A DNA stretch of 64,000 bases from Bacteroidota bacterium (GTDB lineage: Bacteria; Bacteroidota; Bacteroidia; NS11-12g; UBA955): contig JAMLHC010000002.1 in assembly GCA_023957335.1 (NCBI GenBank), positions 179,441-243,440 of the forward strand, read 5' to 3'. The notes under the pieces were generated by a model. It was not told where the DNA came from. It did not search any database and saw only the letters and a program-made list of their open reading frames with translations. A program made the position numbers and the translations under genes. Below are positions 2-16,362 of this stretch, piece after piece; positions within the stretch are counted from its first letter, which is position 1, and every line of letters starts with the position of its first letter.

Positions 2-3000
2 GAGTTTTTCTATGATTTGAAACCTGATAATGAAATGATGAAAAAACTCATTATGGCAGGGAATGTTAAGGAAGCAGGTTATCATTTTATTATCAAAGCA
101 GGAAAAGAAGTTGGAGTAGGTGATACCACTTGGATAGAATTAAGGGGTTGGAATACTTGTATGCCTTTGTTTGATTTGGAAGCAAGAGATTTTGTTGGAA
201 TGATGGTGCAGGCTTTGCCTAGCGGATTTGGAAACGGATGTGAGTGTTTGACTTGTCCTCAGGTTCAGGAACATGTTGATTCCCTTTTTAAAGAATATCC
301 TGATTTGCAATATAATCATCCAAATTATGCTAGTGTGTTGACTACATTCTTGAATAAACACTTGAATACAAATCTGAGTTTTGCTGAATACCAAACTTTT
401 ATGGAGGGTTGTGGGATGTTTAGTAGAATTGATTTACGTTCTAGTACTTGTGATTACAGAATTAGTGTTGCTTCTGGGTCGGATTGTGTAGCGCATTTGG
501 ACACTCAGTTACGGCATTTGTATGTTCAAACTTCTGAAGCATTGATGTATAGCAAAACAAAGGTGAGTGCAGACAGTATTGTCTATTGCATTGACTTGAG
601 TATGTTTGATGCTACAGGAAGGTTGTGGGCTGCCGATACATTGGAAATGATTTTAGCAGAAACAGGAAATTGCAGTGGAGCAAATAATCAGGAGGATTTT
701 GTGGGTACTTTTAGTAGGTTGTTAATCTTGACACAAACTGAACCAGCCTGCGATGGTAGAACACTGTCGGAAGTAGTGACTAACCAATCCTATAGTGACA
801 GTATTTCAATAACTTCGTATTATAGTCTAGAATGGCTTAATTATTTGAATGATAAAGATACTGGATATTATTACCAGTGGAATCATGCAGAGTTGAGTTT
901 TGCTAAGAGAGCTGATTTTGCGGATACTCTACAAGTGTGGGCATTGGCTTGTGATGATGTGCAGGAATTAGTGTTTCCTTTCCACAAGAGTGGTTATGCA
1001 GAAGGGTTTGCAGAATATGGAATTTGTAGAATTGTGGAAGAAGATACTTTCTGTAATGACTGTGAAGAGATAAGGCATGAATTAATAAAGTACCAATATG
1101 CTTTAGGAACACCATCGAATGAAAGCCCATTAAGGTATTGGACAAGTAAAGATATACGAAAAGTTTTAAAGGATAGCTTGAATGCTGACTATAGGGTTGT
1201 ATTTGAGAATGATGGTTGTCAAAATTGCCCTGATAAGAAGTTGTTTGTTTGTGAGCAATTGAGCGAGGGTGGAAATGCTTTTGCAACACTTCTAAATAAC
1301 TTATTAGCAGATGGGAATCTTTTTGAAAATCATGACTTGACATCAGATACGGCATTGTTGCGAAAGATGAATTTTACTGGAGCATTTAATAGTCCACAAT
1401 TACTGTTTAGTTCTAATATGTCTATTGATACTATTGGAGAATCTCCTGGGTGGGTTTTTGATACATTAGCTAGTTTATGGAATCTACAAATTAAGTTTAA
1501 CCAAAAAACCACTTTGAAGTTTAGTATTGTACTTGAAGGAGATGGAACTAGTTTTAGTGATATTAAAAGAATATTAAGTCTTAAACCTAAGGCAAATAAC
1601 GGTGAAGTATATAGTTTTGAGCTGGTATTATTAACAGAAAACGATGTTTTAAATGCCATTGGAGAAAGCAATGGTTTGGTGATGAGCAATTGTTGTGAAT
1701 ATAGAGAGTTGTTGTTGTGCCCAAAAACTATGAGCAGAGAAGGTTTGTACCCTGTTGCTAAACCTTGCAAAGCTGATGAAATTGCCAATGCTTGGGAACA
1801 GTCTGGAATTATGTACTTACAATATAAAGATTCCTTGCGCAGAGATTTTAAGAATAAGTATGTGGAACACTGTCTGAACAATGCTAGTGAAAATGCATTG
1901 ATGAAATACCGTGAACAACAGTATCATTATACTCTCTATCATTATGATTTGGCGGGCAACCTTATTAAAACTGTACCTCCAGGGGGTGTTGAATATTTGG
2001 ATATGAATGCATTGAGAACGGATAGTATTGCAGATGCCAGAGATGATTATGATAAGGATTTGCATGTTTTCACTAAACACGGATTGGCAAGTTTGTATGA
2101 GTACAACAGTTTGAACCAACCTGTGTGGCAAGCCACTCCTGATGGGGGTGTAAGTAAGTTTTGGTATGACCGTTTGGGCAGGTTGGTGGTGAGCCAAAAT
2201 GCAAAGCAGAAGCTGTTAGGCGATGTGTATAGCTATACTGTGTATGACAGTCTAGGCAGAATTAGAGAGGTGGGTGAAATAACGGGAGATGCGATAAATG
2301 AAGTGAGTTTGCGAGCGGAAGACGGATATGAGGAGTATTATATGGGGTGGGTTGATGCAGGCTTAAAAACCCAGATTACGCGCACTTGGTATGATGCACC
2401 CATGAGCGAAGATATTGATGATGCGTTTGGAGTGGCAGGACAACAGTATTTGAGAAATAGGGTGAGCAGTACAGCTTATTTTGAATATGCTCCTACAGGT
2501 GAATGGGAAACTGAGTTTACTCGCGCTACTCACTACAGCTATGATATTCATGGAAATGTGCATACATTAATTCAGGATTTGCCAGAGTTGGCAAGTGTGG
2601 GTCATAGGTTTAAGTATGTGAGGTATGACTATGATTTGGTAAGTGGGAATGTGAAGCGAGTGAGGTATCAAGAGAATGCAGGCGATGCTTTTTACCACCG
2701 CTATGAATATGATGCAGACAATCGTCTTGTGTTGACAGAAACGAGTTTGGATGAACGTATTTGGGATAGGGATGCAGAGTATGAGTACTATTTGCATGGA
2801 CCATTAGCGAGGGTGTTGATTGGAGAAAAAATGGTTCAAGGGGTGGATTATGCTTATTCGCTACATGGTTGGTTGAAAGGTGTGAACTCTGTGAGTTTGA
2901 ATGCGAATAGGGATATGGGAAGAGATGGTGTAAGTGGAGGAAGAAGGTATGTTGCACGGGATGCGTTTGGCTTTGCGTTGAACTATTACTATGATGCAAA

Positions 3001-5992
3001 TAGTGAGGCAGACTATGAAGCAATTGCACCAGGTGCGAACTGGAATGGAGGAAGGTTGGAAACACAACTGACAAGCGGAGCTAACCAACTTTTTAATGGA
3101 AACATAAACAGTATGGTTACAAGTGTTACTCCATTTATGGAAGGTGGACCGATGGCAACGGTGTATAGGTACGATCAGTTGAACAGGATTAAGGGGATGA
3201 AAACCTACAGGAATTTTAATCAAAGTACGAATGTGTGGAACAGTGGAGGGACGAGCAATTTCTTTGCTACAAACTATAGTTATGATGCAAATGGAAATAT
3301 ACTTTCTTTGAACAGGAACAGTGGTGATGGAAGCAAACTGGGAATGGATGCGTTGACGTATCATTACAAGGCAGGAACAAATCAGTTGGAGTATGTGGAC
3401 GATGCGGTGACTGCGGGAGAACATGAGAATGATGTGGATGATCAGGAAGAAGATAATTATGTGTATGATGCAATTGGAAACTTGGTGCAAGATGTGGCAG
3501 AAGGGATTGAAGCAATTGAGTGGAATGTGTATGGAAAAGTGCGGAGAATAGTAAGAAGTTCTTCAGCAGTTGACAAACCCGACTTGGAATTTAGGTATGA
3601 CGCGGGAGGTCAACGAGTGGTTAAGATAGTGAAAGATGGAGCCAACGAGATTGACTGGAAGTATCAGTACTATGTGCGAGATGCGCAAGGGAATGTGATG
3701 GCTACTTATGACAAGAAAAGTGTGGTAAGCGGTGATACAAGTGTGTATAGGAAGATTAATGAATGGCTAATAACTAATGAGGGAGGAACTGCATTTGGCG
3801 AGTTTGTGGATGGGGAGTTGAAGGGCGGACAATTTGACGGGGCATTGATTGAAGCTATAGTAGAATGGAGTGAAACGGAGAATGTTCTTAGTGGCTATGA
3901 TGCGTCAGACTTTTGGGGTTGGGATGCAAATATGGCATCTCTTATTATGCAGCAGATTGTTTCGTATGCAAGCCCTCCAACCGAATACGAAGAAGTGTTT
4001 GACCTTGTGTGGAACGGTGGTCTGTTCCTTTCGGTAAACGCTGCCATTGTAAACAGTTGCGGAGTGAGCACTCAGAATATGCTGCAAAACCTGCTTATGT
4101 CTGACATGTTGAACAACCATTTGCTAATGGGCTTATATACCCAAAGCGCAGGTACGTTTATAGCCATGTACAGCTCAATGGGGGGATTGCCTCCTTACAA
4201 CGCTCCGGGAATGATAAACTGGATGTGGATGAACTCCACCAACATAGGGATTGCCACAGAGATACTGAATTTTTACAGCCCAACGCAAATACAAACGGCT
4301 TTGGACGGAATGCCTTATGTGGTGATGAAGGATTTTGCGATAAACAATTTCAGCGATTTTGTGAATACAATAAATCTGTGTATGATTGCTCTTCCGGGTA
4401 ATTTCTGGAGTGGGTTCAGCAACCAGGGCATGCTGCGGGATATTATTATGAATCACAGTGCGGCAGAGTACCTGCTTGCGCTGGCAATGAGCAACGACCC
4501 TGACTTTGTGAAAAATGTGGCGGAGAATTACAGCTACCTTGTGGCGGAGGCGGTGCGCAAGCTGGACGGCATGAGCGTGGACGCCTACCTTGCCTTGGTG
4601 AGAAACCACTACGGAGACGGAGTGCTGGCGGATTTGCTTGCCGCTTTGAGCGAAGACCTTATCTTTACGCAAAAGTTTGTGCTGGATGAGCACCACCTGT
4701 ACGGCAGTAGCCGTTTGGGCGTGAAAACCCACAGGAGGGTGCTGCTGCGCAAGGAGTTTAGTATTAGTGGATTTGAGGAAGATGGCACTTATATTACGGA
4801 TGAGGTGACAGATTCGCTTGTTTATGTGGCTTCGAGTGAATACTTTTGTAGGGTGTTGGCACAAAAGCAATATGAGTTGAGTAATCATTTGGGCAATGTT
4901 CTTGCAACAGTGCTTGACCGTAGAACAGGTGTTTTTGATGAGGGAGCTGATACGCTGATGTATTATGTGGCGGATGTTGTGAGTGCTACTTTGTATTATC
5001 CGTTTGGGCAAGCAATGTTGAGTTATTCTAATATTGAATTTGCTTTTACATACGGGTTTAATGGGAAAGAGAAAGATGAAGAAGGAATGGGCGGTGGTGG
5101 TGCGACATATGATTACGGATTTAGAATTTACAATCCTCAAATTGCACGGTTTTTAAGTGTTGACCCACTCAGTTCCTCATTTCCTTGGTACACTCCTTAC
5201 CAATTTGCTGGAAACATGCCAATAATCGCTATTGATTTAGATGGTTTAGAAGAATTTGTAATTATTAGATGGTGGGAAAACGGAAAGTACAAGGGCACAA
5301 CAGTGACATATTTGCCTAACAAAGGGAGTGTGAGATTTTATAGGAACAATCCTCAATATGTTAACCATACAATGTATTTAGATATGGAATACAGTGAAAG
5401 GCAATATAATTTAATGCATGGCGGAAAAATATTTAAAACAATGAAGGTCGGAGATAAAATTTTGATTAGTGCTCTTTCAGACGAAGCGAGATCTATAATA
5501 TACAATACAGATAATAACCAGACAAAACCCAAAGAAGGTTCAATATTGACCCCAACACCTGTTAATGAAAAAGAGAGAATTAAAGCAAATCAACAAAAAG
5601 CTGCATTTAGCCCTGAGAATAATAGGTGGGGTGGAAGCGAGATAACTCCAAAAGTCACTAATTTACATTATAATACTGACAATAGTGACCCACTTGTTCT
5701 ATCGCAGAGTGTTATTGACGGGTTTGCTGCTGCGCTTCTAATTAATCCAGATTATGTAATTAGAATTACTGGGCATACAGACAATGTTGGCACTGATCAA
5801 TATAATAGAGATCTAGGATTAAGAAGAGCAGAAGAAACTAGAGATTATTTAATATCAAAAGGAATATCCCCTGATAGAATTGTAGTTGAAACACAGGGTG
5901 AGTCAAATCCTATAAGTTCAAATGAGACTAGTGAAGGCAGAGCTCAAAACAGAAGAGTAGAAATTAGTATAGAACCCCAAAGATTAAATTAA
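2..5992 (+). CDS. Rhs/YD-repeat family polymorphic toxin, 5' end outside the window; Rhs core ends at DLDGL (5234-5248); the C-terminal tip carries an OmpA-like peptidoglycan-binding domain
   Basis: The frame is open from nt 2; the listed first codon at 17 is TTG and there is no upstream stop. Many YD repeats are present (YHYDLAGNLI, YEYNSLNQPV, WYDRLGRLV, YSYDIHGNV, YDYDLVSGNV, YEYDADNRLV, YRYDQLNRI, YSYDANGNIL, YVYDAIGNLV, FRYDAGGQRV). The Rhs-associated core tail reads YDYGFRIYNPQIARFLSVDPL..PWYTPYQFAGNMPIIAIDLDGLEE. It is followed by ITGHTDNVGTDQYNRDLGLRRAEETRDYL...NRRVEISI, an OmpA C-terminal type motif. Confidence 0.9.
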   Translation, partial: EFFYDLKPDNEMMKKLIMAGNVKEAGYHFIIKAGKEVGVGDTTWIELRGWNTCMPLFDLEARDFVGMMVQALPSGFGNGCECLTCPQVQEHVDSLFKEYPDLQYNHPNYASVLTTFLNKHLNTNLSFAEYQTFMEGCGMFSRIDLRSSTCDYRISVASGSDCVAHLDTQLRHLYVQTSEALMYSKTKVSADSIVYCIDLSMFDATGRLWAADTLEMILAETGNCSGANNQEDFVGTFSRLLILTQTEPACDGRTLSEVVTNQSYSDSISITSYYSLEWLNYLNDKDTGYYYQWNHAELSFAKRADFADTLQVWALACDDVQELVFPFHKSGYAEGFAEYGICRIVEEDTFCNDCEEIRHELIKYQYALGTPSNESPLRYWTSKDIRKVLKDSLNADYRVVFENDGCQNCPDKKLFVCEQLSEGGNAFATLLNNLLADGNLFENHDLTSDTALLRKMNFTGAFNSPQLLFSSNMSIDTIGESPGWVFDTLASLWNLQIKFNQKTTLKFSIVLEGDGTSFSDIKRILSLKPKANNGEVYSFELVLLTENDVLNAIGESNGLVMSNCCEYRELLLCPKTMSREGLYPVAKPCKADEIANAWEQSGIMYLQYKDSLRRDFKNKYVEHCLNNASENALMKYREQQYHYTLYHYDLAGNLIKTVPPGGVEYLDMNALRTDSIADARDDYDKDLHVFTKHGLASLYEYNSLNQPVWQATPDGGVSKFWYDRLGRLVVSQNAKQKLLGDVYSYTVYDSLGRIREVGEITGDAINEVSLRAEDGYEEYYMGWVDAGLKTQITRTWYDAPMSEDIDDAFGVAGQQYLRNRVSSTAYFEYAPTGEWETEFTRATHYSYDIHGNVHTLIQDLPELASVGHRFKYVRYDYDLVSGNVKRVRYQENAGDAFYHRYEYDADNRLVLTETSLDERIWDRDAEYEYYLHGPLARVLIGEKMVQGVDYAYSLHGWLKGVNSVSLNANRDMGRDGVSGGRRYVARDAFGFALNYYYDANSEADYEAIAPGANWNGGRLETQLTSGANQLFNGNINSMVTSVTPFMEGGPMATVYRYDQLNRIKGMKTYRNFNQSTNVWNSGGTSNFFATNYSYDANGNILSLNRNSGDGSKLGMDALTYHYKAGTNQLEYVDDAVTAGEHENDVDDQEEDNYVYDAIGNLVQDVAEGIEAIEWNVYGKVRRIVRSSSAVDKPDLEFRYDAGGQRVVKIVKDGANEIDWKYQYYVRDAQGNVMATYDKKSVVSGDTSVYRKINEWLITNEGGTAFGEFVDGELKGGQFDGALIEAIVEWSETENVLSGYDASDFWGWDANMASLIMQQIVSYASPPTEYEEVFDLVWNGGLFLSVNAAIVNSCGVSTQNMLQNLLMSDMLNNHLLMGLYTQSAGTFIAMYSSMGGLPPYNAPGMINWMWMNSTNIGIATEILNFYSPTQIQTALDGMPYVVMKDFAINNFSDFVNTINLCMIALPGNFWSGFSNQGMLRDIIMNHSAAEYLLALAMSNDPDFVKNVAENYSYLVAEAVRKLDGMSVDAYLALVRNHYGDGVLADLLAALSEDLIFTQKFVLDEHHLYGSSRLGVKTHRRVLLRKEFSISGFEEDGTYITDEVTDSLVYVASSEYFCRVLAQKQYELSNHLGNVLATVLDRRTGVFDEGADTLMYYVADVVSATLYYPFGQAMLSYSNIEFAFTYGFNGKEKDEEGMGGGGATYDYGFRIYNPQIARFLSVDPLSSSFPWYTPYQFAGNMPIIAIDLDGLEEFVIIRWWENGKYKGTTVTYLPNKGSVRFYRNNPQYVNHTMYLDMEYSERQYNLMHGGKIFKTMKVGDKILISALSDEARSIIYNTDNNQTKPKEGSILTPTPVNEKERIKANQQKAAFSPENNRWGGSEITPKVTNLHYNTDNSDPLVLSQSVIDGFAAALLINPDYVIRITGHTDNVGTDQYNRDLGLRRAEETRDYLISKGISPDRIVVETQGESNPISSNETSEGRAQNRRVEISIEPQRLN

Positions 5993-5993
5993 T

Positions 5994-6758
5994 ATGAAAA
6001 TAATACTTGTTTTAACTTCAATTTTTATTTCGTTTTTATTGGGATTTTCATTTCGAAATCACCACTTTAATAAATTAAGCGCTTCTAATTCTGCCAAAAT
6101 GCAAATTTCCAACGTTGATACAAGCAGGTTTGAAAACGTTTTAGAAATGTATGAAGATATATTCTCTGAAAACTTAAGGATAACTGATATCTATATTGAT
6201 AGTTTATTTTGTTACCCAAACATGAGAGACAGTGAAGACATAACATCAGACCCATATATGACTTTAGAAGACTACTTCTATAATAACTGTATCATTGCAT
6301 TAAAAATGGTTAATATTGACAATACTAAAGATATTTTTAGTATTAATAAAAACGGATTCTGTACATTGATAATTGAAAAGAATAAAGAAAAACTAAGGAA
6401 AATAACATATTTAAATAGTGGAATTGAAACAATCGTTAATATAGGAGAATTGGATGAAATAAGTGTGCATAACACTATAAATGGGGATACTGTTGGAAAT
6501 GCCCTATGGATTGATAAAAACTCAAAGCTTACTCGATTATATCAAAACAATTTAGATTCTTTCAGTATAAACTATGTTAAGGTAAATACAACATTTGATA
6601 CAGTGAAAAACAATAGCCCTTTTGTTGAAGTAAATACAACCACAATTGTAACAAATCCTATAAAATATGGCTTTGACTACTTTTTCGATAATAATAATAA
6701 TACTGTTAGAAAAAGAACTCATTTTAATGGCGATTCTATTTCTACTATTCAGAGGTGA
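5994..6758 (+). CDS. putative cognate immunity/partner protein of the resident Rhs tip (imm1), signal-anchored
   Basis: The ATG lies 2 nt after the rhs stop. The N-terminus is hydrophobic (MKIILVLTSIFISFLLGF). The ORF is very AT-rich and shows no enzymatic motif. Function is assigned by position only. Confidence 0.55.
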   Translation: MKIILVLTSIFISFLLGFSFRNHHFNKLSASNSAKMQISNVDTSRFENVLEMYEDIFSENLRITDIYIDSLFCYPNMRDSEDITSDPYMTLEDYFYNNCIIALKMVNIDNTKDIFSINKNGFCTLIIEKNKEKLRKITYLNSGIETIVNIGELDEISVHNTINGDTVGNALWIDKNSKLTRLYQNNLDSFSINYVKVNTTFDTVKNNSPFVEVNTTTIVTNPIKYGFDYFFDNNNNTVRKRTHFNGDSISTIQR

Positions 6759-6766
6759 AGGGGGTA

Positions 6767-6794
6767 GGTAGTGTTGTAGATGTGTTGATTTTAC
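6767..6794 (+). repeat. G/T-rich cassette-junction motif, type 1 (GGTAGTGTTGTAGATGTGTTGATTTTAC)
   Basis: 26 of 28 nt are identical to 8701-8728. It shares the 14-nt core GGTAGTGTTGTAGA with 6805-6818 and with the reverse complement of 12158-12171. Confidence 0.8.
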
Positions 6795-6801
6795 ATTTTA
6801 A

Positions 6802-6821
6802 CAAGGTAGTGTTGTAGATTT
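6802..6821 (+). repeat. G/T-rich cassette-junction motif, type 2 (CAAGGTAGTGTTGTAGATTT); left arm of a perfect 20-bp inverted repeat
   Basis: Its exact reverse complement, AAATCTACAACACTACCTTG, is at 12155-12174. Confidence 0.85.
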
Positions 6822-6892
6822 GGTGTTTTGAGAAAAACCAGAACTTAACCTACTAAAAACCAAAGAAAAGTATCTTTCAGCAATAACAAAAA

Positions 6893-6918
6893 AGCGGATA
6901 TAAAGTCCGCTCATTTTT
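6893..6918 (+). terminator. Rho-independent terminator after imm1
   Basis: The stem is AGCGGA / TCCGCT with loop TATAAAG, followed by CATTTTT. Confidence 0.6.
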
Positions 6919-6946
6919 CTAATAAAATCATTTAAGAAAAACTTTT

Positions 6947-7012
6947 TATCTTCGCTCTACCAAACATGAGAAATTACCATCAAAATACCGCCAGTTTTTA
7001 CAACCCGTTTGG
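6947..7012 (+). repeat. conserved class-A orphan leader plus first codons (TATCTTCG..ATG..SFYNPFG); inverted partner at 11923-11988
   Basis: Hand alignment against the reverse complement of 11923-11988 gives 55 of 66 identical positions. It contains TATCTTCG, one mismatch from the Bacteroidota -7 box TAnnTTTG, 11 nt upstream of the ATG. Confidence 0.75.
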
Positions 7013-8036
7013 TAGTAGTATGATGGGGTATTCTAATGAGGAATTTGCTTACTCCTATGACTTTAATGGTAAAGAGACAGACGATGAAACAGGATTGCAG
7101 GATTATGGAATGCGTATTTATAATAAAGCTTATGGTAAGTTTTTGAGCGTTGACCCTTTGACATCATCGTATCCTTGGTACACACCTTATCAGTTTGCAG
7201 GAAATAAACCGATTAGATATATTGATTTGGATGGTTTAGAGGAATATGATGTTATAATTTGGCTGGGAGCTGACGGAGTATATAGAACAAGAATGCACTT
7301 AATTAATGAAGAAGGGCCTTTGAAAGTAAATTATTATGCAAGAAAATTAGCACACACAGAACCAATGGACGGTCTTCCTGGGAAACCACCTTGTCCTGAT
7401 TGCGCACCGCAAAAGAAGCAATCTACAGATGAACTTATAGTCTCAAAAACTGTAGGTGAAAATGGTGTCACTGAGAATAATATTTGGGCGACTGATAAAA
7501 TGAAAAATCATACAGAAGGGGCTAATAGCGCAGCTAATCAATCTATTAACAATGGAGTAGTATTTTCAGACCCGGGTTTTAATGGAACAATAGTTACATC
7601 AATTCAAGTTAGACGCACTCTAAATACAATAGAAACACCAATTATTAAAAGATCTACTTGGGAAGAAAAAGGAGGTGGTACCTTTAGAAATGCAACAGAT
7701 AGTGAGATTAATAGTTTCTTTAATAATAATACACTTATGGATAAAGCTTTGAAAAAGGTTAATACTTACAAGAATCCCACAGTATATGTTGCAACAGAAG
7801 AACACTTGGTCGCACTTAAAAAACGAAATGATGAACTCGGATTAAATATCAAAATTGAAGTAAATCCTGCAAAGTTAACCCCGTCATTTACTAATGTAAC
7901 AAGTTATTATTTTGCTTTCGAATATGAAGAGGGAACTACAACTAGTACTACCACCACCACTACAACTACCACCACCACGGCTACAGTAACAGAAGAAGGA
8001 GTAACAAATAACACACCAACAACTAGAACAAGATGA
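6966..8036 (+). CDS. orphan Rhs C-terminal toxin cassette, class A (A1): short Rhs core tail plus unknown toxin domain with a poly-Thr tail
   Basis: The ORF opens MRNYHQNTASFYNPFGSSMMGYSNEEFAYSYDFNGKETDDE..YGMRIYNKAYGKFLSVDPLTSSYPWYTPYQFAGNKPIRYIDLDGLEE. This parallels residues of the resident Rhs core tail. About 260 aa with no motif I recognise follow, ending in TTTSTTTTTTTTTTTAT. Confidence 0.75.
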   Translation: MRNYHQNTASFYNPFGSSMMGYSNEEFAYSYDFNGKETDDETGLQDYGMRIYNKAYGKFLSVDPLTSSYPWYTPYQFAGNKPIRYIDLDGLEEYDVIIWLGADGVYRTRMHLINEEGPLKVNYYARKLAHTEPMDGLPGKPPCPDCAPQKKQSTDELIVSKTVGENGVTENNIWATDKMKNHTEGANSAANQSINNGVVFSDPGFNGTIVTSIQVRRTLNTIETPIIKRSTWEEKGGGTFRNATDSEINSFFNNNTLMDKALKKVNTYKNPTVYVATEEHLVALKKRNDELGLNIKIEVNPAKLTPSFTNVTSYYFAFEYEEGTTTSTTTTTTTTTTTATVTEEGVTNNTPTTRTR

Positions 8037-8713
8037 AAATGAAACTTATTATATTGTTTGGACTTGCGATTTGCAATTTAAACTGTCAAGGTTCTTTAGT
8101 ACAATCTATTTCAAAAGATACTAATAAAGAAGATAAATTAATATTTTACCATGCTGATTGGGCTGAGTTTGTCTTAATAATTGTGAAAAAATCACCTGTT
8201 TTAGACACTGAAATTCCTTTATCATGCAGAAATGGCAAAAGCAATAAAAGGCTCATAAATGAAGACAAAGGAGATACTACTTTTTTTTATGTATCTGAAC
8301 ATAAATTATCCTTTAAAGAAAGGGATATTCTTTTTAAAGATAGCTTGATTCAATTTAAGGGATATAGATTTGTTGATTTAAAAGAAATTGACACAGGTAT
8401 TATATCAGATAAACACAGGATGAGTGTTACCTGTTTTGAATGTATATTAGACACAATCTATGACTCTACATTTAAACTCAATTTTCAAGGCAACCACTAT
8501 GAAACTTATTTTTTAGAAAATATAGAATGTATATTTAAATCAAATGAAAGGTTTTTTATGTCAAGTTATCCAATTCAAAATTATTATCAAATACCTCTTT
8601 CAATTGGTTACTTACTTAATGTTGGATTATTCACAGGTTTGGTTTCTGTATCTGATGAAGAAGGGTTTTTTATAGATTGGAGCGAGTTGTCATGGAATTT
8701 GGTAGTGTTGTAG
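8033..8713 (+). CDS. putative immunity lipoprotein for A1 (imm2)
   Basis: ATGA start/stop overlap with A1. The signal peptide has a Cys (MKMKLIILFGLAICNLNCQG). Function is assigned by position only. Confidence 0.55.
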   Translation: MKMKLIILFGLAICNLNCQGSLVQSISKDTNKEDKLIFYHADWAEFVLIIVKKSPVLDTEIPLSCRNGKSNKRLINEDKGDTTFFYVSEHKLSFKERDILFKDSLIQFKGYRFVDLKEIDTGIISDKHRMSVTCFECILDTIYDSTFKLNFQGNHYETYFLENIECIFKSNERFFMSSYPIQNYYQIPLSIGYLLNVGLFTGLVSVSDEEGFFIDWSELSWNLVVL

Positions 8714-8728
8714 AGTTGTTGATTTTAC
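8701..8728 (+). repeat. G/T-rich cassette-junction motif, type 1 (GGTAGTGTTGTAGAGTTGTTGATTTTAC)
   Basis: 26 of 28 nt match 6767-6794. It contains the imm2 stop codon (TAG 8711-8713). It ends 5 nt before the stop of the first minus-strand gene. Confidence 0.8.
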
Positions 8729-8733
8729 CTTAC

Positions 8734-9291
8734 TCACCATTTATGAAAATAAGAATCAATTTGTTTTTTTGTTTTTATTATTCTCATCCCATTTATTCCT
8801 CCATAAAAACGAATATTTGGAATGCTGTCTAACTTTCCTCTTTTAAAATAATAGTAATCATTTGGAACAGTATCTTTATATTTACTTTCTATCCGCATTT
8901 TAGAATTTACTGAATCCTTGCTCATTTCAAATACATTGTCGTTATATATAAGACAAACATAAATCCATTCAGATGCAGTTTGATGAGTTTGAATAAAACA
9001 AAAAGTATCATTATTCTTTAATAAAACAGTATCTAAATCGGAAGTTTCTAAAGCATGATTTAAGACTTTGCTAAACTTACTAATTTCGTTTTTTTCTTGT
9101 TTTCTATTACTAAAAAAGTATCTTAGTCCTTTCCTTTTGGGTGAGATAGAACGAATATGCTTTTTGAAAATATTAATTGAAACATCTAATATGTCCCCTT
9201 CTTTTTTTTTCTCATTAATTTGTGAAGATGTAAGAGAAAAAAAACTTAAAGTCAATATTGTAATTAAGTAAAAAAAAAGTTTTTTAATCAT
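8734..9291 (-). CDS. putative immunity protein for B1 (imm3), secreted
   Basis: The longest ORF runs to 9345. The ATG at 9291 gives a typical signal peptide (MIKKLFFYLITILTLSFFSLTSSQ) and overlaps the B1 stop by only 8 nt. Confidence 0.5.
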   Translation of the reverse strand: MIKKLFFYLITILTLSFFSLTSSQINEKKKEGDILDVSINIFKKHIRSISPKRKGLRYFFSNRKQEKNEISKFSKVLNHALETSDLDTVLLKNNDTFCFIQTHQTASEWIYVCLIYNDNVFEMSKDSVNSKMRIESKYKDTVPNDYYYFKRGKLDSIPNIRFYGGINGMRIIKTKKQIDSYFHKW

Positions 9292-10357
9292 ATTTAAAAG
9301 GTGATTGAGAATGATAATTAACCCAAATAAATTCTTGAAATTCACTACCCATAGGAGAGTAATCTAGTAATCCATTATATCCAGGATTAACAATTTGAAT
9401 TAATGTGGTTGTATGTACATCAAAAGTAGAATAGCTACCTGTTGAAGTTTTTTGAACTAATTGACCTTTATAATTTCCTAGCTTATCTTTATCTAAACTA
9501 TAATGGGTTCTTAATGGGTAACCATGCTCCAGTCTAATTTGATTTTCAACATGAACTGCAAATACTTCTGAATATGGTATGGTCTCACTATTATATCCTT
9601 CTGTGGAATACCATATTTTATCTGGGTTAAGTCCGAAAACATTTTGTGATTTATTGTAATGATAATCCCAAGCATGCCCGAGTTCATGTCCTAGTACTAA
9701 AAAAGGATCCATTGGTGTATTTACAAAATCATCTCCTTTTGCTACAGGTACATTAACTACCACATTAGGATTCCACCCGACTGTTTTAGCATCTACATTA
9801 TAGTAATTTCTTCTTCCATTTTTACTCTGTCTCGTTATTAGTAATGAACTTTCCATTGAGTGTAAATCATCAATCATCATTTTACCTATTGGGCCAGTAT
9901 ATAACCTATTTAATGCCTGTACAGTTTCGCAAATTACATTATCATTTCCATCATAATCTATTCCTGGGGTATATATGTATGTTCCTGTCTTACTACTTGC
10001 ATCAGGAATTTTTATTGTATCACCCGCCACATCGCTAAACCAAATTGGATTATTCGCAAAGGCAGCATAAACAGAAATACTTGGATTAGGTTTTGGGTCA
10101 ACATTCCACCTCCTACCCAACCTAGCATCATACTGCCAATACTCCGCACTATAAGAATTTCCTTTCCCATAAATCTCATCATCTTTCTCTTGGGTATTCA
10201 TACCGTACGAGTAAGCAAATTCAGAGTTAGAATACCCCATCATACTCATACCGAACGGGTAATACATTACAGCCTCCCCCAACCCCTCCAAAGGAGGGGA
10301 GTATTTCCCCCTTTTGGGGGGATTAAGGGGGGCAGTTATTTGACCGCTTTTTTGCAT
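9284..10357 (-). CDS. orphan Rhs-tip toxin cassette, class B (B1): HExxH zinc-metallopeptidase-like toxin
   Basis: Rhs homology begins at VMYYPFGMSMMGYSNSEFAYSYG (in-frame ATG at 10267). The class-B core terminus is YDARLGRRWNVDPKPNPSISVYAAFANNPIWFSDVAGDT. The toxin part has LVLGHELGHAWDY (HELGH, 9674-9688). The first ~30 codons of the listed ORF run through a GC-rich hairpin element and are probably not coding. Confidence 0.7.
   Translation of the reverse strand: MQKSGQITAPLNPPKRGKYSPPLEGLGEAVMYYPFGMSMMGYSNSEFAYSYGMNTQEKDDEIYGKGNSYSAEYWQYDARLGRRWNVDPKPNPSISVYAAFANNPIWFSDVAGDTIKIPDASSKTGTYIYTPGIDYDGNDNVICETVQALNRLYTGPIGKMMIDDLHSMESSLLITRQSKNGRRNYYNVDAKTVGWNPNVVVNVPVAKGDDFVNTPMDPFLVLGHELGHAWDYHYNKSQNVFGLNPDKIWYSTEGYNSETIPYSEVFAVHVENQIRLEHGYPLRTHYSLDKDKLGNYKGQLVQKTSTGSYSTFDVHTTTLIQIVNPGYNGLLDYSPMGSEFQEFIWVNYHSQSPFKYD
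10273..10333. repeat. GC-rich nested-hairpin element (REP/MITE-like) immediately 5' of cassette B1
   Basis: Hairpin 1 is CCCCTCC-AAA-GGAGGGG (10283-10299). Hairpin 2 is CCCCC-TTTT-GGGGG (10307-10320). They are flanked by CCCCC (10276-10280) and GGGGG (10327-10331). The surrounding DNA is AT-rich. Confidence 0.6.
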
Positions 10358-10483
10358 GGTGTTTTCAATGTCAAAAGTAGGGATTTTTTGCCTTGCTTAT
10401 CATAGTAATCTCTTAATCACAAAAAATCACAGTTTAGACACTTCCACAAAACCCCCAATCTGATACATTACCTACATTACCCA

Positions 10484-10975
10484 TTACCATATTTTATGTA
10501 CATTCCTCCAATACAATATCATTGAATCATTATTATTGAATTTAAAGTATGCATTTTTATTACTTACATGTATGTTATACCACACATTTTTCTCGAATCC
10601 AAAACTCAAAGTGTCAGTAATAATATGCTTTCGTGTATCCGTCCACTTGTAATTAGAATTAGTCTTGAAGAAATGTATATATTTTTTCGCTTTATGATTT
10701 TCAGATTTCAGACTAGCAAAACACAATTTTACTATATCATATTTAGCAGGAACTCCTTGAAAACAAAAAGAATCAACACTAAGTTCACAAACTGTAACCC
10801 CTTCTAATTTGCAGTTGCTTTTAATATATTCTCTTGTTATTTCAAATGAGCAACTTTTTGCAAAATAGCCCATGTAAATAAGATAGCATGAACTAAGAGA
10901 GCAACACAAGAAAATTAAAATTATCTTATCTGGTCGCACTATCCTTAGCAACTTTAAGTATTTTTTGTTCTGCAT
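10484..10975 (-). CDS. putative immunity lipoprotein for A2 (imm4)
   Basis: The ORF is open to 11014. Plausible starts are the ATG at 10975 (MQNKKYLKLL..) or the GTG at 10939 (V-RPDKIILIFLCCSLSSC, lipobox-like). It overlaps the end of A2. Confidence 0.5.
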   Translation of the reverse strand: MQNKKYLKLLRIVRPDKIILIFLCCSLSSCYLIYMGYFAKSCSFEITREYIKSNCKLEGVTVCELSVDSFCFQGVPAKYDIVKLCFASLKSENHKAKKYIHFFKTNSNYKWTDTRKHIITDTLSFGFEKNVWYNIHVSNKNAYFKFNNNDSMILYWRNVHKIW

Positions 10976-11969
10976 TTCGTTTAAATTCATATCCTTTTCC
11001 TTTATAACTATCAATTGTTACTCTTGGGTCTAGCATATCCTTAGGATTGTTCTTATCTAATCCTAGTTTTTCCATTTCACTGATTTTCCATTCTTTGTAT
11101 CTTACTAACATGCCGAAAAACATGCTTGCAGTATACGCAGAATTAACAGCTTCGTCACTTGCAGGTCTTCCTGTTATATTATCAATTCCTCTTTTATGTC
11201 TTTGTTCTGTAACTCTATTATAGTAAGCATCCCAGCCTTCTATTGCTGCTTTATCACCCGGTAAAGTCCTTACATCTTCTAACCAACAAAAAGTTCCAAG
11301 GTCTTCTTGGTCGCGGTCGTGTGTGTATGCGATAGCATCAACTTCATCAATTGGGTTTATAGACCAGTCATAGCTGTTATAGGCTTGTACATCTTTATGA
11401 GGTCCAAAAATTGTTTTTGCCCCCTCGCCTTGAAAGAACCCATGTCTTCCTATAGCACTTATACTAAGTCCTCCTCCTTGAGCTATCTCCATTTCCTCAA
11501 CTTCATCATATATTTCACCATTTGCATTTTCAAATTGATAGATATATTTTACTCCCCTACCTTCGGGTCCAAAACTTTCCGAATACTTTTCATAATTAAA
11601 TCCTTCGATATCTCTGTAATCACACACGTCTATTATTACTGGAGCATTCCCATCAATTATTTTCACAGTATATGTAATATATTCTGCACCTTCCAAGTCG
11701 ATTCCGTCAATAGGTCTATTTCCTGCATATTGATAAGGTGTCCACCAAGGGAACTTGCCAGCTTTAGGGTCACGTGACTTGAATCTAATAATTCTAGGGT
11801 CATAATCCCTATATTCAAAAGCATAAGAATTTCCATCTCCTGCTATTTCGCTATCCATATATTGTCCACCGAACCCATAAGCATAGCTAAACTCCGCGTT
11901 GCTGTAAGCTTGCAGGGTGCTTCCGAACGGGTTGTAAAAACTGGTAGTATTTTGGCGTTGTTTTCTCAT
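10926..11969 (-). CDS. orphan Rhs C-terminal toxin cassette, class A (A2): Rhs core tail plus unknown toxin domain
   Basis: The ORF opens MRKQRQNTTSFYNPFGSTLQAYSNAEFSYAYGFGG..YRDYDPRIIRFKSRDPKAGKFPWWTPYQYAGNRPIDGIDLEGAE. About 250 aa follow, containing NPIDEVDAIAYTHDRDQ. Confidence 0.75.
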   Translation of the reverse strand: MRKQRQNTTSFYNPFGSTLQAYSNAEFSYAYGFGGQYMDSEIAGDGNSYAFEYRDYDPRIIRFKSRDPKAGKFPWWTPYQYAGNRPIDGIDLEGAEYITYTVKIIDGNAPVIIDVCDYRDIEGFNYEKYSESFGPEGRGVKYIYQFENANGEIYDEVEEMEIAQGGGLSISAIGRHGFFQGEGAKTIFGPHKDVQAYNSYDWSINPIDEVDAIAYTHDRDQEDLGTFCWLEDVRTLPGDKAAIEGWDAYYNRVTEQRHKRGIDNITGRPASDEAVNSAYTASMFFGMLVRYKEWKISEMEKLGLDKNNPKDMLDPRVTIDSYKGKGYEFKRNAEQKILKVAKDSATR

Positions 11970-11988
11970 GTTTTGTAAGGCGAAGATA
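11923..11988 (-). repeat. conserved class-A orphan leader plus first codons; inverted partner of 6947-7012
   Basis: 55 of 66 positions are identical to 6947-7012 after reverse complementing. It includes TATCTTCG, the ATG, and the block TTTTTACAACCCGTT. Confidence 0.75.
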
Positions 11989-12098
11989 TGGATTTATTTA
12001 GAAAGGCTCAATACAAGTTATTTCGGATGTTTTTTCTAAGAAAATGAGGGAGGTCGCAGGGGTTGTTATTCAAACCCTGATTTTTTGACACCAAGCAC

Positions 12099-12124
12099 AA
12101 AAAAAGCCCCGAACTGGCAGGGCT
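12099..12124 (-). terminator. Rho-independent terminator after imm5 (minus strand)
   Basis: On the minus strand the stem is AGCCC / GGGCT with a 10-nt loop, followed by a run of six T. On the plus strand it is followed by TAAAAA, so it is strand-specific. Confidence 0.55.
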
Positions 12125-12154
12125 TAAAAATATATTGATGTGTAATCTTTCCTA

Positions 12155-12174
12155 AAATCTACAACACTACCTTG
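12155..12174 (-). repeat. G/T-rich cassette-junction motif, type 2; right arm of the perfect 20-bp inverted repeat
   Basis: AAATCTACAACACTACCTTG is the exact reverse complement of 6802-6821. It spans the imm5 stop codon (12167-12169). Confidence 0.85.
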
Positions 12175-12997
12175 AAATTATCTGACATGCTTTGAATTCT
12201 ACAACATCAATTAAATGATAGTTAATATCCTTATTGTCAATGCCATAGTATTTTTTCTTATCATCGAAATATGAACTATCATAATTTATAAATTTCAGAA
12301 CATAAATACTGTCTTTAAAATAAATCAATATGGTGTTATTTTTAACGACTTCTGCTTTTAAGTATGATACCCATTGAGCATAATTTTTTGTATATACTAC
12401 ATCGTGATAGTTTTCTTCAATTACGTACTCACATGTAGCATTAAGATATTCATCTAAATAATATTCAAGAGTTGAAATTGAATCAATTAACTTTATTTCA
12501 CTGTAATTACGCATAACTTCGTTATGTCCTCGCATATATGAAAATAAGATGTCCTTTGATAACTTAATACTTTCGTTTGTAGGCAAATTCAGGTAATTTA
12601 TAATTTTCTCAATTTCTCTTGTTGCAAAAGAAAAACGAATGTTTTCAGAGCCACCAAATAAAGTAATATCAAAGTCGTTTTTGTAATACAATTCAGATAT
12701 ATCAGAGTCGAAATACAACATATTTGCTGAAAATATTGAAATATAATTCCAATTACTGTCCAATGCAATAAACAGGTTCGCAAAATAGCTATGACGAACA
12801 GTATCTGACATTTCAATAATTTTTAATTTGTCGTTGAACATGATAAGTGTGTCTGTCGGTGTAAATCTACTGACATACAAGCTGCAATAATCAGGTACTA
12901 CAATTTTTGATTCTTCTGAGACATGTTTAACCTTTTCGACACATGAAACCATGTTGAAACCAAGCACATAAATCAGTACGCAAATTTGAGTTTTCAT
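12167..12997 (-). CDS. putative immunity lipoprotein for B2 (imm5)
   Basis: It starts 12 nt after the B2 stop. The signal peptide has a Cys (MKTQICVLIYVLGFNMVSC). Function is assigned by position only. Confidence 0.55.
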   Translation of the reverse strand: MKTQICVLIYVLGFNMVSCVEKVKHVSEESKIVVPDYCSLYVSRFTPTDTLIMFNDKLKIIEMSDTVRHSYFANLFIALDSNWNYISIFSANMLYFDSDISELYYKNDFDITLFGGSENIRFSFATREIEKIINYLNLPTNESIKLSKDILFSYMRGHNEVMRNYSEIKLIDSISTLEYYLDEYLNATCEYVIEENYHDVVYTKNYAQWVSYLKAEVVKNNTILIYFKDSIYVLKFINYDSSYFDDKKKYYGIDNKDINYHLIDVVEFKACQIISR

Positions 12998-13009
12998 GAA
13001 GTTAAATTA

Positions 13010-13975
13010 TCAGTTCTGGTGCTTATAAATATTGATTGGTTCTGTTTTATACCTAAGTAAGTAAGCACTAAAATAATATTGATGAAAACCAATAAATAAA
13101 TACTTGTCCTTAATGTCCTTATATTTTGGGTCTTTACTTTTTCGCAAATCTGCATAAGACTTTGGCAATCCCTTTTCATAAGAACTTAAAAACCTTTCAG
13201 AACCTGATAACATTAAATTTTGTCCAACTTTAGACTCAACGGTATGGTCATCTCTATTTATTAACAGGCATTTATTATCAAGACCCCAATTGAACTTAAT
13301 TGCTTTTAGATAGCCATGCCCCGTTTCATGAACTATCGAATTAGACATGACAAGCGTTGAATTGTTTTTCATTGCTTCTGTAAATTCACTATAATAAATA
13401 ACACTTCTATTACTGAAATTCACGCCCCTCACTCCATGAGAATAAAAACTTTCAAAAGAAATATAGTGGTCTGTTTCGTTGAGTTTGATTTGGTCAAATG
13501 TCAAAGTTGTTTCTTCTACTACAACATTAAGATTATTATCCCTGTACATCAGCTCTAAATCCTTAAATAGTCGGTTTTTATAAGCATCAAAATTTTTATT
13601 CATCTGCTCTTCTGTCCAACCTTTATCTTTGTTTGCTTCCGAATATCCCTTTTTCAGTTCTATAGTATTTACAAAAACAGTTGTATCCCCCGCCACATCA
13701 GTAAACCAAATCGGATTATTCCCAAAACAAGCATAAACACTAACACTTGGATTTGGTTTTGGGTCGTTGTTCCAACGCCTTCCCAGTCTGCTGTCATACA
13801 TCCAGTATTCCGCACTGTATGCACCTTCAAAGATTTCATCATCTTTGAGTTGTCCGTTTTGTCCGAAGGAATATGAGAACTCCGCGTTGCTATAACTCAT
13901 CATAGAGCTTCCGAACGGATAATAAAGAAATCCGCTTTGAGCCTTAGGTAGATATGATGTTAGAGGATGCATCAA
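13010..13975 (-). CDS. orphan Rhs-tip toxin cassette, class B (B2): HExxH zinc-metallopeptidase-like toxin
   Basis: The Rhs homology reads GFLYYPFGSSMMSYSNAEFSYSFGQNG..YDSRLGRRWNNDPKPNPSVSVYACFGNNPIWFTDVAGDT. The toxin part has SIVHETGHGYL (HETGH, 13316-13330). The listed start is a TTG inside the 3' end of the integrase gene, so a genuine independent start is doubtful. Confidence 0.7.
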   Translation of the reverse strand: MMHPLTSYLPKAQSGFLYYPFGSSMMSYSNAEFSYSFGQNGQLKDDEIFEGAYSAEYWMYDSRLGRRWNNDPKPNPSVSVYACFGNNPIWFTDVAGDTTVFVNTIELKKGYSEANKDKGWTEEQMNKNFDAYKNRLFKDLELMYRDNNLNVVVEETTLTFDQIKLNETDHYISFESFYSHGVRGVNFSNRSVIYYSEFTEAMKNNSTLVMSNSIVHETGHGYLKAIKFNWGLDNKCLLINRDDHTVESKVGQNLMLSGSERFLSSYEKGLPKSYADLRKSKDPKYKDIKDKYLFIGFHQYYFSAYLLRYKTEPINIYKHQN

Positions 13976-15044
13976 TTGTCTGTTTATCTGACAAAATTAA
14001 CATTTTTTGCGCAAATTTATCATGTATTTTTGATAATTCTTCGTCCATATAACTTTGGCTATGCTCCACATATTTATAAAACTCTTTTGAACCTGGCGCA
14101 TGACCACTTATCTTCCTAACCAAATTTTCTTCTAGCCCTAACCTTAACAATGTTGTTACAGTTGTTCTTCGCATACAATGGCTAGAAATCAAATCACAAT
14201 AGCGGTAATGCTTTCTATTATTTCGTTTAATCTCAAATGGCTTACCTCTTCTCATTCTTATTTTTGGAACTTCGTGTGTCCAACCTGCTTGTTCTGTCAA
14301 CAGCTTTATATTCAAATTAAACAGGCTGAGTGCAGGGAAGGGAAATAGGGTTTTGCGTTTTTTATCTCTGTATTTCTCAATAATTTCTATTGCATAATCT
14401 GGAAGCATGATTCTTGTTAGGGTTTGTGTCTTTTGTGATAGGTTTACAATGTAATAACGATTACCAATTATTTCTAAATTATGGCTAGTTAACCTCTTTA
14501 AATCCGAATACCTTAACCCAACAGTACACCCAAACACAAAAAGATCCTTTGTCAAGCTCAGAGACATAGGTAAGCTTGATTCAAATTCTTTTGAATGAAT
14601 CAGGTAGTTCAACATTTCGGGTTCCAACACAATGATTGGAATGGCTTCGTTTGACACATAAAACTTTTTAAAGTATTGCCCTATAATCATACCCATATCT
14701 ATAGAAAGCCAATTTAAAAAAGCTTTTAGCAACTTAATATTCTGACCCACATAGTTGTCTGTATAGCCTTGTTTGTTGTACAAGAAGTCAGTAAATGAGG
14801 TATAGAATGATTGCCAATACTTCTGTACTTTTTTCTTTTCCCGTTCATTTGCCTTGCTTACTTCATAAACAAAAAGCTCAAACCCAGAATGGGCTACAAA
14901 CTTCTGTAATACCCTAGAAAGCATTTCATAGTTTAGATTTGTACTGGCAACTATGGAAGCACCATTGGTTTTTCTTCTTCTCTTAATTTGGTTGTGCCTA
15001 ATAAATTTTACTAATAGAGGCAACATTGCGTGTTCTTTAATCAT
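13944..15044 (-). CDS. tyrosine-type site-specific recombinase/integrase
   Basis: The C-terminal catalytic domain pattern is present: GLRYSDLKRL (Arg), SSHCMRRTTVT (HxxR), ISGHAPGS (His), EFYKYV (Tyr). The N-terminal part resembles Bacteroidota phage-integrase SAM-like domains. Confidence 0.85.
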   Translation of the reverse strand: MIKEHAMLPLLVKFIRHNQIKRRRKTNGASIVASTNLNYEMLSRVLQKFVAHSGFELFVYEVSKANEREKKKVQKYWQSFYTSFTDFLYNKQGYTDNYVGQNIKLLKAFLNWLSIDMGMIIGQYFKKFYVSNEAIPIIVLEPEMLNYLIHSKEFESSLPMSLSLTKDLFVFGCTVGLRYSDLKRLTSHNLEIIGNRYYIVNLSQKTQTLTRIMLPDYAIEIIEKYRDKKRKTLFPFPALSLFNLNIKLLTEQAGWTHEVPKIRMRRGKPFEIKRNNRKHYRYCDLISSHCMRRTTVTTLLRLGLEENLVRKISGHAPGSKEFYKYVEHSQSYMDEELSKIHDKFAQKMLILSDKQTIDASSNIIST

Positions 15045-15565: not shown

Positions 15566-15573
15566 TATCTTTG
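15566..15573 (+). promoter_or_regulatory. candidate Bacteroidota -7 promoter box (TATCTTTG) for fabG
   Basis: It matches TAnnTTTG and lies 19 nt upstream of the fabG ATG at 15592. Confidence 0.35.
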
Positions 15574-15591
15574 CCCGCAAATTCAGCGAAT

Positions 15592-16341
15592 ATGAAATTA
15601 TTGGAAAACAAGACCATTCTCGTTACCGGAGGATCGCGAGGCATAGGCAAAGGAATAGCAGAGCGTATGGCAGAACAAGGAGCCAACATTGCTTTTACTT
15701 TTGTATCCAGCATAGAGAAAGCCAAATCTTTTGAAAACGAATTACAACAGAAATACAGTATCAAAGCCAAAGGATACCAGTCCAATGCAGCCGATTTTGA
15801 AGGTTCGCAAAAATTGGCAGATGAAGTAACTGCCGATTTTGGCAATATTGACGTGCTAATCAACAATGCAGGCATAACACGCGACACGCTTTTAATGCGT
15901 ATGTCTGAAGAACAATGGGACGAAGTCATCAATACCAATTTGAAATCCGCATTTAATATGACCAAAGCTTGCATGAAAACTTTCATGAAAAATCGTGCAG
16001 GTTCTATTATCAATATAACTTCTATTGTAGGTATCACAGGAAATGCAGGACAAGCCAACTACGCTGCTTCCAAAGCAGGTATGATTGGTTTTACAAAGTC
16101 AGTTGCCAAAGAGCTGGGCAGCCGTAATGTAAGATGTAACGCGATTGCACCCGGATTTATTGAAACTGAAATGACAGAAGCTTTGAGTGAAGAAGTACGC
16201 AACTCTTGGACACAAACCATCCCATTGAAGCGCGGAGGAACTCCAACAGAAGTAGCCAATGCTTGTATTTTCCTTGCCTCTGACTTATCCTCTTATGTAA
16301 CGGGGCAAACACTGAATGTGTGTGGCGGAATGGTAATGTGA
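15592..16341 (+). CDS. fabG: 3-oxoacyl-[acyl-carrier-protein] reductase
   Basis: SDR motifs are present: LVTGGSRGIGKGIA, NNAG, and YAASKAG. Length and sequence are typical of FabG. The ATG at 15592 is preferred over the upstream TTG at 15571. Confidence 0.9.
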   Translation: MKLLENKTILVTGGSRGIGKGIAERMAEQGANIAFTFVSSIEKAKSFENELQQKYSIKAKGYQSNAADFEGSQKLADEVTADFGNIDVLINNAGITRDTLLMRMSEEQWDEVINTNLKSAFNMTKACMKTFMKNRAGSIINITSIVGITGNAGQANYAASKAGMIGFTKSVAKELGSRNVRCNAIAPGFIETEMTEALSEEVRNSWTQTIPLKRGGTPTEVANACIFLASDLSSYVTGQTLNVCGGMVM

Positions 16342-16362
16342 GTCAACTAATAATGAAATAAA

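Follow-up and report, generated by a model that had tools for sequence, protein, structure and literature searches.

In the classical arrays of Rhs and contact-dependent inhibition (CDI) toxins, typified by the Salmonella rhs orphan, a full-length gene is followed by 5'-truncated toxin-immunity pairs that share its core end and can be recombined onto it; these pairs are co-oriented, and RecA-type recombination or duplication is the process involved (PMC3967940, PMC3482391). Recombinases are also associated with immunity genes. Genes for XerC/D adjoin polyimmunity loci (Zhang et al. 2012, PMC3482391), and the rAID-1 loci of the Bacteroidales, recognized by a 5' XerD-like recombinase >44% identical to BF9343_RS08045, combine this enzyme with co-oriented orphan immunity genes, with neither inversion nor a toxin in cis (Ross et al. 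2019, doi 10.1101/471110; PMC12247911). Alternative C-termini are a feature of the R64/IncI shufflon, with its recombinase Rci, sfx sites and pilV C-termini, and of the gene-altering programmed inversions seen in type I restriction-modification hsdS genes, phage tail fibres and SusC/D (PMC9881135). Rhs proteins and toxins are mentioned neither in the survey of such inversions by Milman et al. 2023 (PMC9881135) nor in a study of intragenic invertons (PMC10028968). Here we analyze an Rhs polymorphic-toxin island at positions 2-15044 of a 64,000-nt stretch from a Bacteroidota bacterium (GCA_023957335.1, contig JAMLHC010000002.1, 179,441-243,440 of the forward strand; henceforth the window), in which an rhs gene and four orphan cassettes (A1, B1, A2 and B2) are accompanied by a tyrosine recombinase. 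Comparison of sequences across strains and species indicates that cassettes are very probably exchanged in a site-specific manner at short sites within the Rhs core. The locus is also likely, with somewhat less assurance, to be a system for programmed exchange of the toxin tip of a giant Rhs protein, including inversion of stored tips onto rhs.

The original prediction, made from the window alone, described one full-length rhs gene and four 5'-truncated cassettes with cognate small open reading frames (ORFs), and this picture stands: all the ORFs of the rhs gene and the five core-end, tip and small-ORF modules are present where it had placed them (Table 1). It did not give their strands, and B1, A2 and B2 prove to be minus-strand genes, oriented opposite to rhs. 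The plus strand carries, in order, rhs, imm1, A1 and immA1, while the minus strand carries, from position 15044 down, the recombinase, B2/immB2, A2/immA2 and B1/immB1; the two arrays are convergent, with 20 nt between the end of immA1 and that of immB1. The recombinase gene had been included in the predicted span without being described. As proposed, the tips are unlike one another (n=5, best mutual BLASTP E 0.39), as are the downstream ORFs (n=5, best mutual E 0.11), and each partner ORF begins 2-13 nt past the tip ORF or overlaps it. By visual inspection, the N-termini of all five partners are hydrophobic or resemble those of lipoproteins, three of them with a Cys in a lipobox-like position. 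The cassette region has a GC content of 32.6%, as against 41% in the rhs body.

All five core-ends start with a 14-nt site, TAYWAYCCGTTYGG, located where the coding sequence of the Rhs-associated core domain (TIGR03696) begins. This sequence occurs exactly five times in the window, twice on the plus and three times on the minus strand (S1 to S5 in Table 1), with 0.18 occurrences expected by chance. The core of the site, CCGTTYGG, provides the codons for Pro-Phe-Gly of a 'YYPFG' motif, and its Pro codon shares the reading frame of rhs and of every tip, so exchange inside the core would not shift the frame. The core domain itself is recognizable in rhs (aa 1660-1744, NCBIfam Rhs_assc_core, E 5e-13) and at the N-terminus (76-95 residues) of each of the four orphans, with matches above the model's cut-off in A1 (2.6e-15) and A2 (1.5e-11) and below it in B2 (1.3e-6) and B1 (4.8e-4). 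Two classes of core terminus had been proposed for these proteins; the resident and A1 termini are 64% identical and those of B1 and B2 68%, and A2 is intermediate between them, at 40-49%. At the DNA level, the core-ends beyond the 14-mer are 49-72% identical over their first 90 nt in an ungapped comparison, and 70-80% identical locally over ~270 nt. The low identity next to the site disposes of long inverted repeats in the window, and homology-driven inversion is therefore unlikely in this species.

The adjacent recombinase retains the residues R178, K205, H289, R292, H315 and Y325, which are invariant across 21 homologues. Apart from its Pfam match, the sole hit is a weak one to the NCBIfam XerA/integron-integrase model (22 bits against a cut-off of 220); NCBIfam models recognize no IntI-type integrase here, and a profile of the family recovers no relative among PDB sequences. 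We detected 1246 relatives at E<1e-10, and the homologues listed are from environmental Bacteroidota, with none named as Bacteroidales. Six co-oriented ORFs lie behind the recombinase in the 32.6% GC region, which is within the bounds used to define rAID-1 arrays (at least two genes, GC of at most 41%).

Comparisons between strains place the breakpoints at the sites. Eighteen public contigs encode exactly this recombinase protein; ten of them, from other samples or metagenome-assembled genomes (MAGs) of the same species, were compared at S5. These ten share the chromosomal flank (SDR, TatC, RpiB onward) and are identical to the window over 300/300 nt up to S5; past the 8-nt core they are only 51-59% identical to it. 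About ten different cassettes are found behind an identical leader ending in CTTTATTATCC, and the divergence begins inside CCGTTYGG. On one of these contigs (L093, from GCA_039810705.1) the S5 leader leads through CCGTTCGG into the A1 cassette of the window, with 96.9% identity over the 130 nt to the contig end, and the exchange point falls between +6 and +9 of the core. Since A1 lies on the opposite strand behind S2 in the window, this junction is the expected product of an inversion between S2 and S5. A similarly sharp break is seen at S3, where L090 shares leader B (~200 nt) with the window, the last ~190 nt being fully identical up to and including TATTACCCGTTCGG, after which unrelated cassettes follow. 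Where the recombinase gene of a relative matches that of the window with 87-88% DNA identity, the cassette adjoining it is A2-like (L100, L101) or B1-like (L001). Two other contigs, L105 and L106, keep the block of leader A, A1 and immA1 converging on immB1 and B1, and carry other cassettes in the slot 5' of leader A that is occupied by the rhs tip in the window, B-class in L105 and A-class in L106.

Several assemblies also end at the sites. Contig L106 begins and, as reverse complement, ends precisely at CCGTTTGG, L110 terminates directly behind the same sequence, and five recombinase contigs stop 12-31 nt past S5. Contig ends of this kind are expected where a sample contains one cassette joined to two or more left arms. 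With the end of the rhs body as a protein query, only longer orphans from related MAGs were found (P0142-P0149, 470-640 aa), which keep 175-270 aa of the body at 87-90% identity and diverge right behind YYPFG; these seem to form another kind of orphan, variable from the same boundary on. Neither imm1 nor immA1, when looked up, led to further contexts. On two contigs, L091 and L092, the recombinase-adjacent cassette consists of ORFs of 387 and 213 aa and is followed by an opposite-strand gene for an HTH_3-family regulator (12856-13221, minus strand) that is absent from the window. Upstream of the recombinase, the flank at 15571-26440 encodes SDR, TatC, RpiB, CTP synthase, a mechanosensitive channel and a protein of the Glu/Gln-tRNA synthetase class, and is kept in all strains; the island therefore occupies a fixed chromosomal position, on no obvious mobile element.

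The association of this recombinase with rhs genes extends well beyond the species. We surveyed 80 loci, one genome per species, with recombinase homologues 42-54% identical to that of the window, in Chitinophagaceae, Flavobacteriaceae, Cytophagales and other hosts, and located core-ends with a hidden Markov model (HMM) built from the five in the window. Rhs core-ends are found near the recombinase homologue in 61 of the 80 Bacteroidota loci, and the loci lacking them are mostly on short contigs or have a flank on one side only. A full-length rhs gene is in view at 25 loci, with an inverted orphan at 22 of these and direct orphans only at one. Three layouts recur. As in the window, the recombinase and orphan may face the rhs gene (rec> orphan> ... 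<rhs); alternatively, the orphan may lie inverted between rhs and the recombinase (rhs> <orphan rec>). The third layout, in Flavobacterium, has the recombinase flanked by the repeats (rhs> imm> rec> <imm <orphan); its orientation varies between species, being that of rhs in L065, L073 and L085 and the opposite one in L063 and L082. Such a picture would be expected of an invertible segment that contains its own recombinase, and three short contigs (L069, L075 and L028) are just such a segment, with a repeat at both ends. Isolates with the minimal form of the putative switch include Flavobacterium zepuense ZT4R6, F. amnicola LLJ-11, Flavobacterium sp. Root420 and Hyunsoonleella pacifica SW033.

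In these loci rhs and the inverted orphan share a repeat that begins 7-12 nt ahead of the Pro codon (GATTACTAT followed by CCN) and continues without mismatch for 14-168 nt; L082 has the longest run (168 nt), L017 has one of 86 nt, and runs of 68 nt occur in three different genera. In the leaders of orphans, ATTACTAT is kept at positions -8 to -1 (0.6-1.5 bits), with no conservation further upstream, and an in-frame stop codon is present within 60 nt upstream in 49 of 72 orphans; conservation of these positions despite the upstream stops favours a function of the left arm at the level of DNA. Dyad symmetry, assessed over 91 distinct sites, is highest at +4 of the core, with 5.87 of 12 pairs matching as against 3.07 +/- 0.67 for other centres. 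We regard it as evenly balanced whether the clade as a whole, in Flavobacteriales, Chitinophagales, Cytophagales and this MAG, represents a phylum-wide and undescribed form of programmed toxin switching at the 'YYPFG' codons. On that reading, whole core-tip-immunity cassettes would be inverted or exchanged and one Rhs scaffold would fire alternative toxins, in forms ranging from a two-cassette flip-switch with an internal recombinase to multi-cassette hybrids of shufflon and integron like the present locus. At two loci with a recombinase 69% identical (L005 and L006), the neighbouring genes are a convergent one for 748 aa and then one for >2341 aa; neither has a match in Pfam, the core-end HMM finds nothing in either locus, and they could represent different cargo for the same recombinase clade.

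In mechanism, the nearest known systems are the R64 shufflon and the other gene-altering inversions. As in the shufflon, a single tyrosine recombinase stands beside short, asymmetric, in-gene sites in both orientations, and inversions would fuse alternative C-terminal segments to a constant N-terminal gene. Three of the features that define a shufflon are apparent at the sequence level, namely several short sites in both orientations, an adjacent recombinase with its catalytic residues and alternative junctions exact to the site, the last seen between samples. In contrast to R64, the target is a ~3700-aa Rhs toxin rather than a pilus adhesin, the segment (1.6-2.5 kb) is a whole toxin with its immunity gene, curated models give only weak matches to the recombinase, and the cassette content varies by strain, which suggests gain and loss besides inversion. 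Inverted repeats within genes, a nearby recombinase and alternative C-termini are likewise shared with the hsdS, tail-fibre and SusC/D inversions (PMC9881135).

In biology, the locus is closest to rAID-1 and to the classical Rhs/CDI orphan arrays. As in rAID-1, low-GC genes linked to polymorphic-toxin immunity form a co-oriented array that is headed at its 5' end by a tyrosine recombinase and has repeated intergenic motifs and an integron-like look. However, each unit here includes an ORF of 320-357 aa for the core-end and tip, whereas rAID-1 units are immunity genes of 100-300 codons without toxins; furthermore, the site lies within the toxin coding sequence, a full rhs gene faces the array and the hosts are Bacteroidota other than Bacteroidales. 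With the classical arrays it shares the full gene followed by 5'-truncated pairs with a common core end, but differs from them in its dedicated recombinase, inverted cassettes and nucleotide-sharp breakpoint. Integrons, with their IntI integrase and attI/attC sites, are similar in that the recombinase-adjacent slot is the most variable and the cassettes have conserved 3' elements; unlike integrons, the locus has no match to the IntI family, its cassettes are not promoterless single ORFs, its site is in frame within a gene and its arrays are convergent. In the full-text literature searched, the coverage of which is incomplete, we found no description of recombinase-driven exchange or inversion of Rhs tips.

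Under the mechanism we propose, a cassette comprises the complete Rhs-associated core domain (~85 aa, with a DxxGxE/DVAGD end), the tip, the cognate exported-looking immunity gene and a 3' spacer or leader. The dedicated recombinase would cut and rejoin DNA within the site core. Recombination between oppositely oriented sites would invert the intervening DNA, and the six possible plus/minus pairs in the window would give inversions of 3.3-8.9 kb. Such an inversion would attach a stored core-tip-immunity cassette to the rhs body in the correct reading frame, or place it after another leader, and the previous tip would be parked as an 'orphan' behind a leader. Directly oriented sites would permit excision and re-insertion of cassettes in an integron-like manner, which would explain the variable recombinase-adjacent slot and the strain differences in cassette content. 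The leaders, as likely promoter sites, might keep parked immunity genes expressed, and siblings with different tips would thereby be spared from killing each other. We infer that this recombinase is the catalyst and inversion its main mode of action, that stored tips do reach rhs itself and that the immunity genes are expressed.

Certain observations weigh against this mechanism. The sites in the window share just ~14 nt, with little dyad symmetry outside the core, whereas most relatives have long, near-perfect inverted repeats; the mechanism may therefore vary by clade, or this copy may be less active. A search for DNA-level conservation of synonymous positions across the family found that the third positions of the Pro and Gly codons in the core vary freely, so conservation of the site is largely explained by the protein motif and is locus-specific. 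Contig breaks at the site are equally expected from mixtures of strains, and the evidence for inversion is wholly comparative, between assemblies and samples, with none of it at the level of reads or from a single clone. Finally, two metagenome scans with the left arm of S1, one exact and one degenerate, recovered no rhs body joined to an alternative tip of the species. One could ask whether the locus is a frozen relic, that is, whether the family is or was a switch and in this species divergence of the sites has gone too far and the layout is now fixed. The short shared site and the 49-72% identity next to it would fit such a state, as would GCA_019638055.1, a MAG of the same organism with the locus on two contigs broken inside A2, in which the arrangement is that of the window. 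Against this, about ten cassettes are joined to recombinase genes that are at least 99.5% identical in DNA, which implies very recent exchange in this species and makes a relic highly improbable.

There are two other rivals. The original prediction took the modules for displaced orphan toxin-immunity pairs; in the classical, passive form of this reading, incoming tips would have replaced older ones by homologous recombination in the conserved core, and the integrase would belong to an unrelated mobile element. Orphan tip-immunity pairs downstream of rhs are indeed well known (PMC3967940, PMC3482391), the 70-80% DNA similarity of the core-ends over ~270 nt could serve such recombination, and the longer orphans of related MAGs retain 175-270 aa of the rhs body. 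Homologous recombination would, however, scatter the breaks, and those of about ten variants at S5 are confined to 8 nt, with the same sharpness at S3; the left flank of S5 has no homology to rhs. Moreover, simple displacement does not invert, yet three of the four orphans are inverted and co-oriented behind the recombinase; all start with the same 14-nt site, at which identical flanks meet different cassettes in other strains, and the linkage of the recombinase clade to rhs and inverted orphans at 61 of 80 loci spans several orders. Passive displacement is thus quite unlikely. A defensive array, akin to rAID-1 or an integron, in which the recombinase captures foreign cassettes for their immunity genes and the toxins are passengers never moved onto rhs, would account for a recombinase followed by co-oriented 32.6% GC genes with repeated 3' motifs, for the variability of the recombinase-adjacent slot and for the exported look of all partners. 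It does not readily account for the intact, in-frame core-end and full-length tip of each cassette, for the full rhs gene that faces the array with a matching inverted repeat at 22 of 25 loci, or for the other cassettes upstream of leader A in L105 and L106; and in Flavobacterium, two cassettes around the recombinase make a switch, not an accumulating array. We consider it unlikely, and favour programmed exchange of Rhs tips.

Table 1. Features of the Rhs island, in window coordinates
Feature	Positions	Strand	Remarks
rhs, 3' part (1991 codons)	2..5992	+	YD-repeat body, core-end, resident tip with C-terminal OmpA-like domain
S1, TATTATCCGTTTGG, in rhs	4994..5007	+	Pro codon at 5000, in frame; proposed recombination site
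imm1 (254 aa), partner of resident tip	5994..6758	+	hydrophobic N-terminus
3'-end motif, GGTAGTGTTGTAGA(T/G)(T/G)T, two copies behind imm1	6767-6783, 6805-6821	+	
terminator-like hairpin after imm1 motif copies	6893-6911	+	
leader A, ending in S2	6947..7012	+	83% identical to inverted copy 11920-11988
orphan A1: core-end and unnamed tip	6966..8036	+	Thr-rich tail
S2, TACAACCCGTTTGG, before A1	6999..7012	+	
immA1	8033..8713	+	226-aa ORF, called as 224 aa from 8039; lipoprotein-like N-terminus; 3' motif 8701-8717
immB1	8734..9291	-	185 aa as called in public assemblies; ORF to 9345 = 203 aa
orphan B1: core-end and Peptidase_M91 tip	9284..10357	-	PF14891 2.6e-14, HELGH
S3, TATTACCCGTTCGG, before B1	10251..10264	-	
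leader B, 5' of S3	10265-10480	-	hairpin 10308-10332, G/C-rich palindrome CCCCCCTTAATCCCCCCAAAAGGGGG
immA2	10484..11014	-	176-aa ORF; probable ATG start 10990
orphan A2: core-end and unnamed tip	10926..11969	-	invariant H-D pair
S4, TACAACCCGTTCGG, before A2	11923..11936	-	
leader A' with S4	11923..12171	-	terminator-like hairpin 12104-12125; 3' motif 12155-12171
immB2 (276 aa)	12167..12997	-	lipoprotein-like N-terminus
orphan B2: core-end and HETGH tip	13010..13975	-	no family match
S5, TATTATCCGTTCGG, before B2	13911..13924	-	19 nt past recombinase stop codon
tyrosine recombinase (366 aa)	13944..15044	-	Pfam Phage_integrase 4e-7, above cut-off

The stretches between cassettes have features of their own. 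The leaders of A1 and A2 have 69 nt in common at 83% identity. Leader B also encodes the odd N-terminus of the B1 ORF and may be a regulatory or recombinase-accessory element. The TTG start of B2 overlaps the 3' end of the recombinase gene and is probably unused. A terminator-like hairpin closes each cassette, and a 17-nt motif, GGTAGTGTTGTAGATTT, is located at the 3' end of three of the five immunity genes, with the stop codon inside it in two. This motif has five hits against 0.19 expected, is restricted to loci of this species and could mark a 3' boundary of the cassette or be a second recombination element. A scan for sigma-70 promoters gave 51 against 46.7 expected, by a consensus from which Bacteroidota promoters differ.

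The 5' end of rhs lies beyond the window edge; in GCA_019638055.1 the full-length protein has 3705 aa. Its body matches Pfam RHS_repeat (3.8e-6, over the 22-bit cut-off) and also contains the direct-repeat family D4. The resident tip (5249-5700, plus strand) consists of an uncharacterized stretch of ~150 aa and an OmpA-like peptidoglycan-binding domain (Pfam OmpA, E 1.6e-18 / 6.8e-20); Rhs toxins do not usually end in this way, and this feature and the exported look of the partners suggest that the target is periplasmic. The original prediction could name none of the tips with confidence. An HMM search does name that of B1, which matches Peptidase_M91 with 54.4 bits (gathering cut-off 25) and has the HExxH motif as HELGH, and leaves A1, A2 and B2 without a family; searches of Pfam (E<=5), NCBIfam and PDB sequences returned nothing for these three tips or for any of the partners. 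The HExGH motif is the sole feature common to the B1 and B2 tips, and a single-sequence model of the B2 fold was unusable (pLDDT 41). A search of 5.8 billion proteins gave 12 homologues of the A2 tip (10926-11690, minus strand), each no larger than an orphan (163-425 aa) and none of them full-length, in which its H124-D125 pair is invariant; its AlphaFold2 (AF2) model (pLDDT 77) has no Foldseek match in the PDB with E <0.1, and the tip may represent a new toxin fold. The tail of the A1 tip (7935-7978) is a Thr-rich low-complexity segment (TTTSTTTTTTTTTTTATV) encoded by 12-nt tandem repeats.

Orphan cassettes beside rhs or cdiA genes have so far been seen as silent reserves that are only rarely mobilized by homologous recombination. 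If the mechanism proposed here is correct, tip switching would instead be programmed and probably frequent, constituting a form of population-level bet-hedging in interbacterial warfare, and it would join shufflons and other gene-altering inversions with recombinase-associated immunity arrays. It would also explain the fragmentation of such loci in short-read assemblies. The system would be a compact natural swapper of in-frame C-terminal modules that requires one enzyme and one site of ~14-80 bp, and its predictions are testable in cultured isolates of Flavobacterium.

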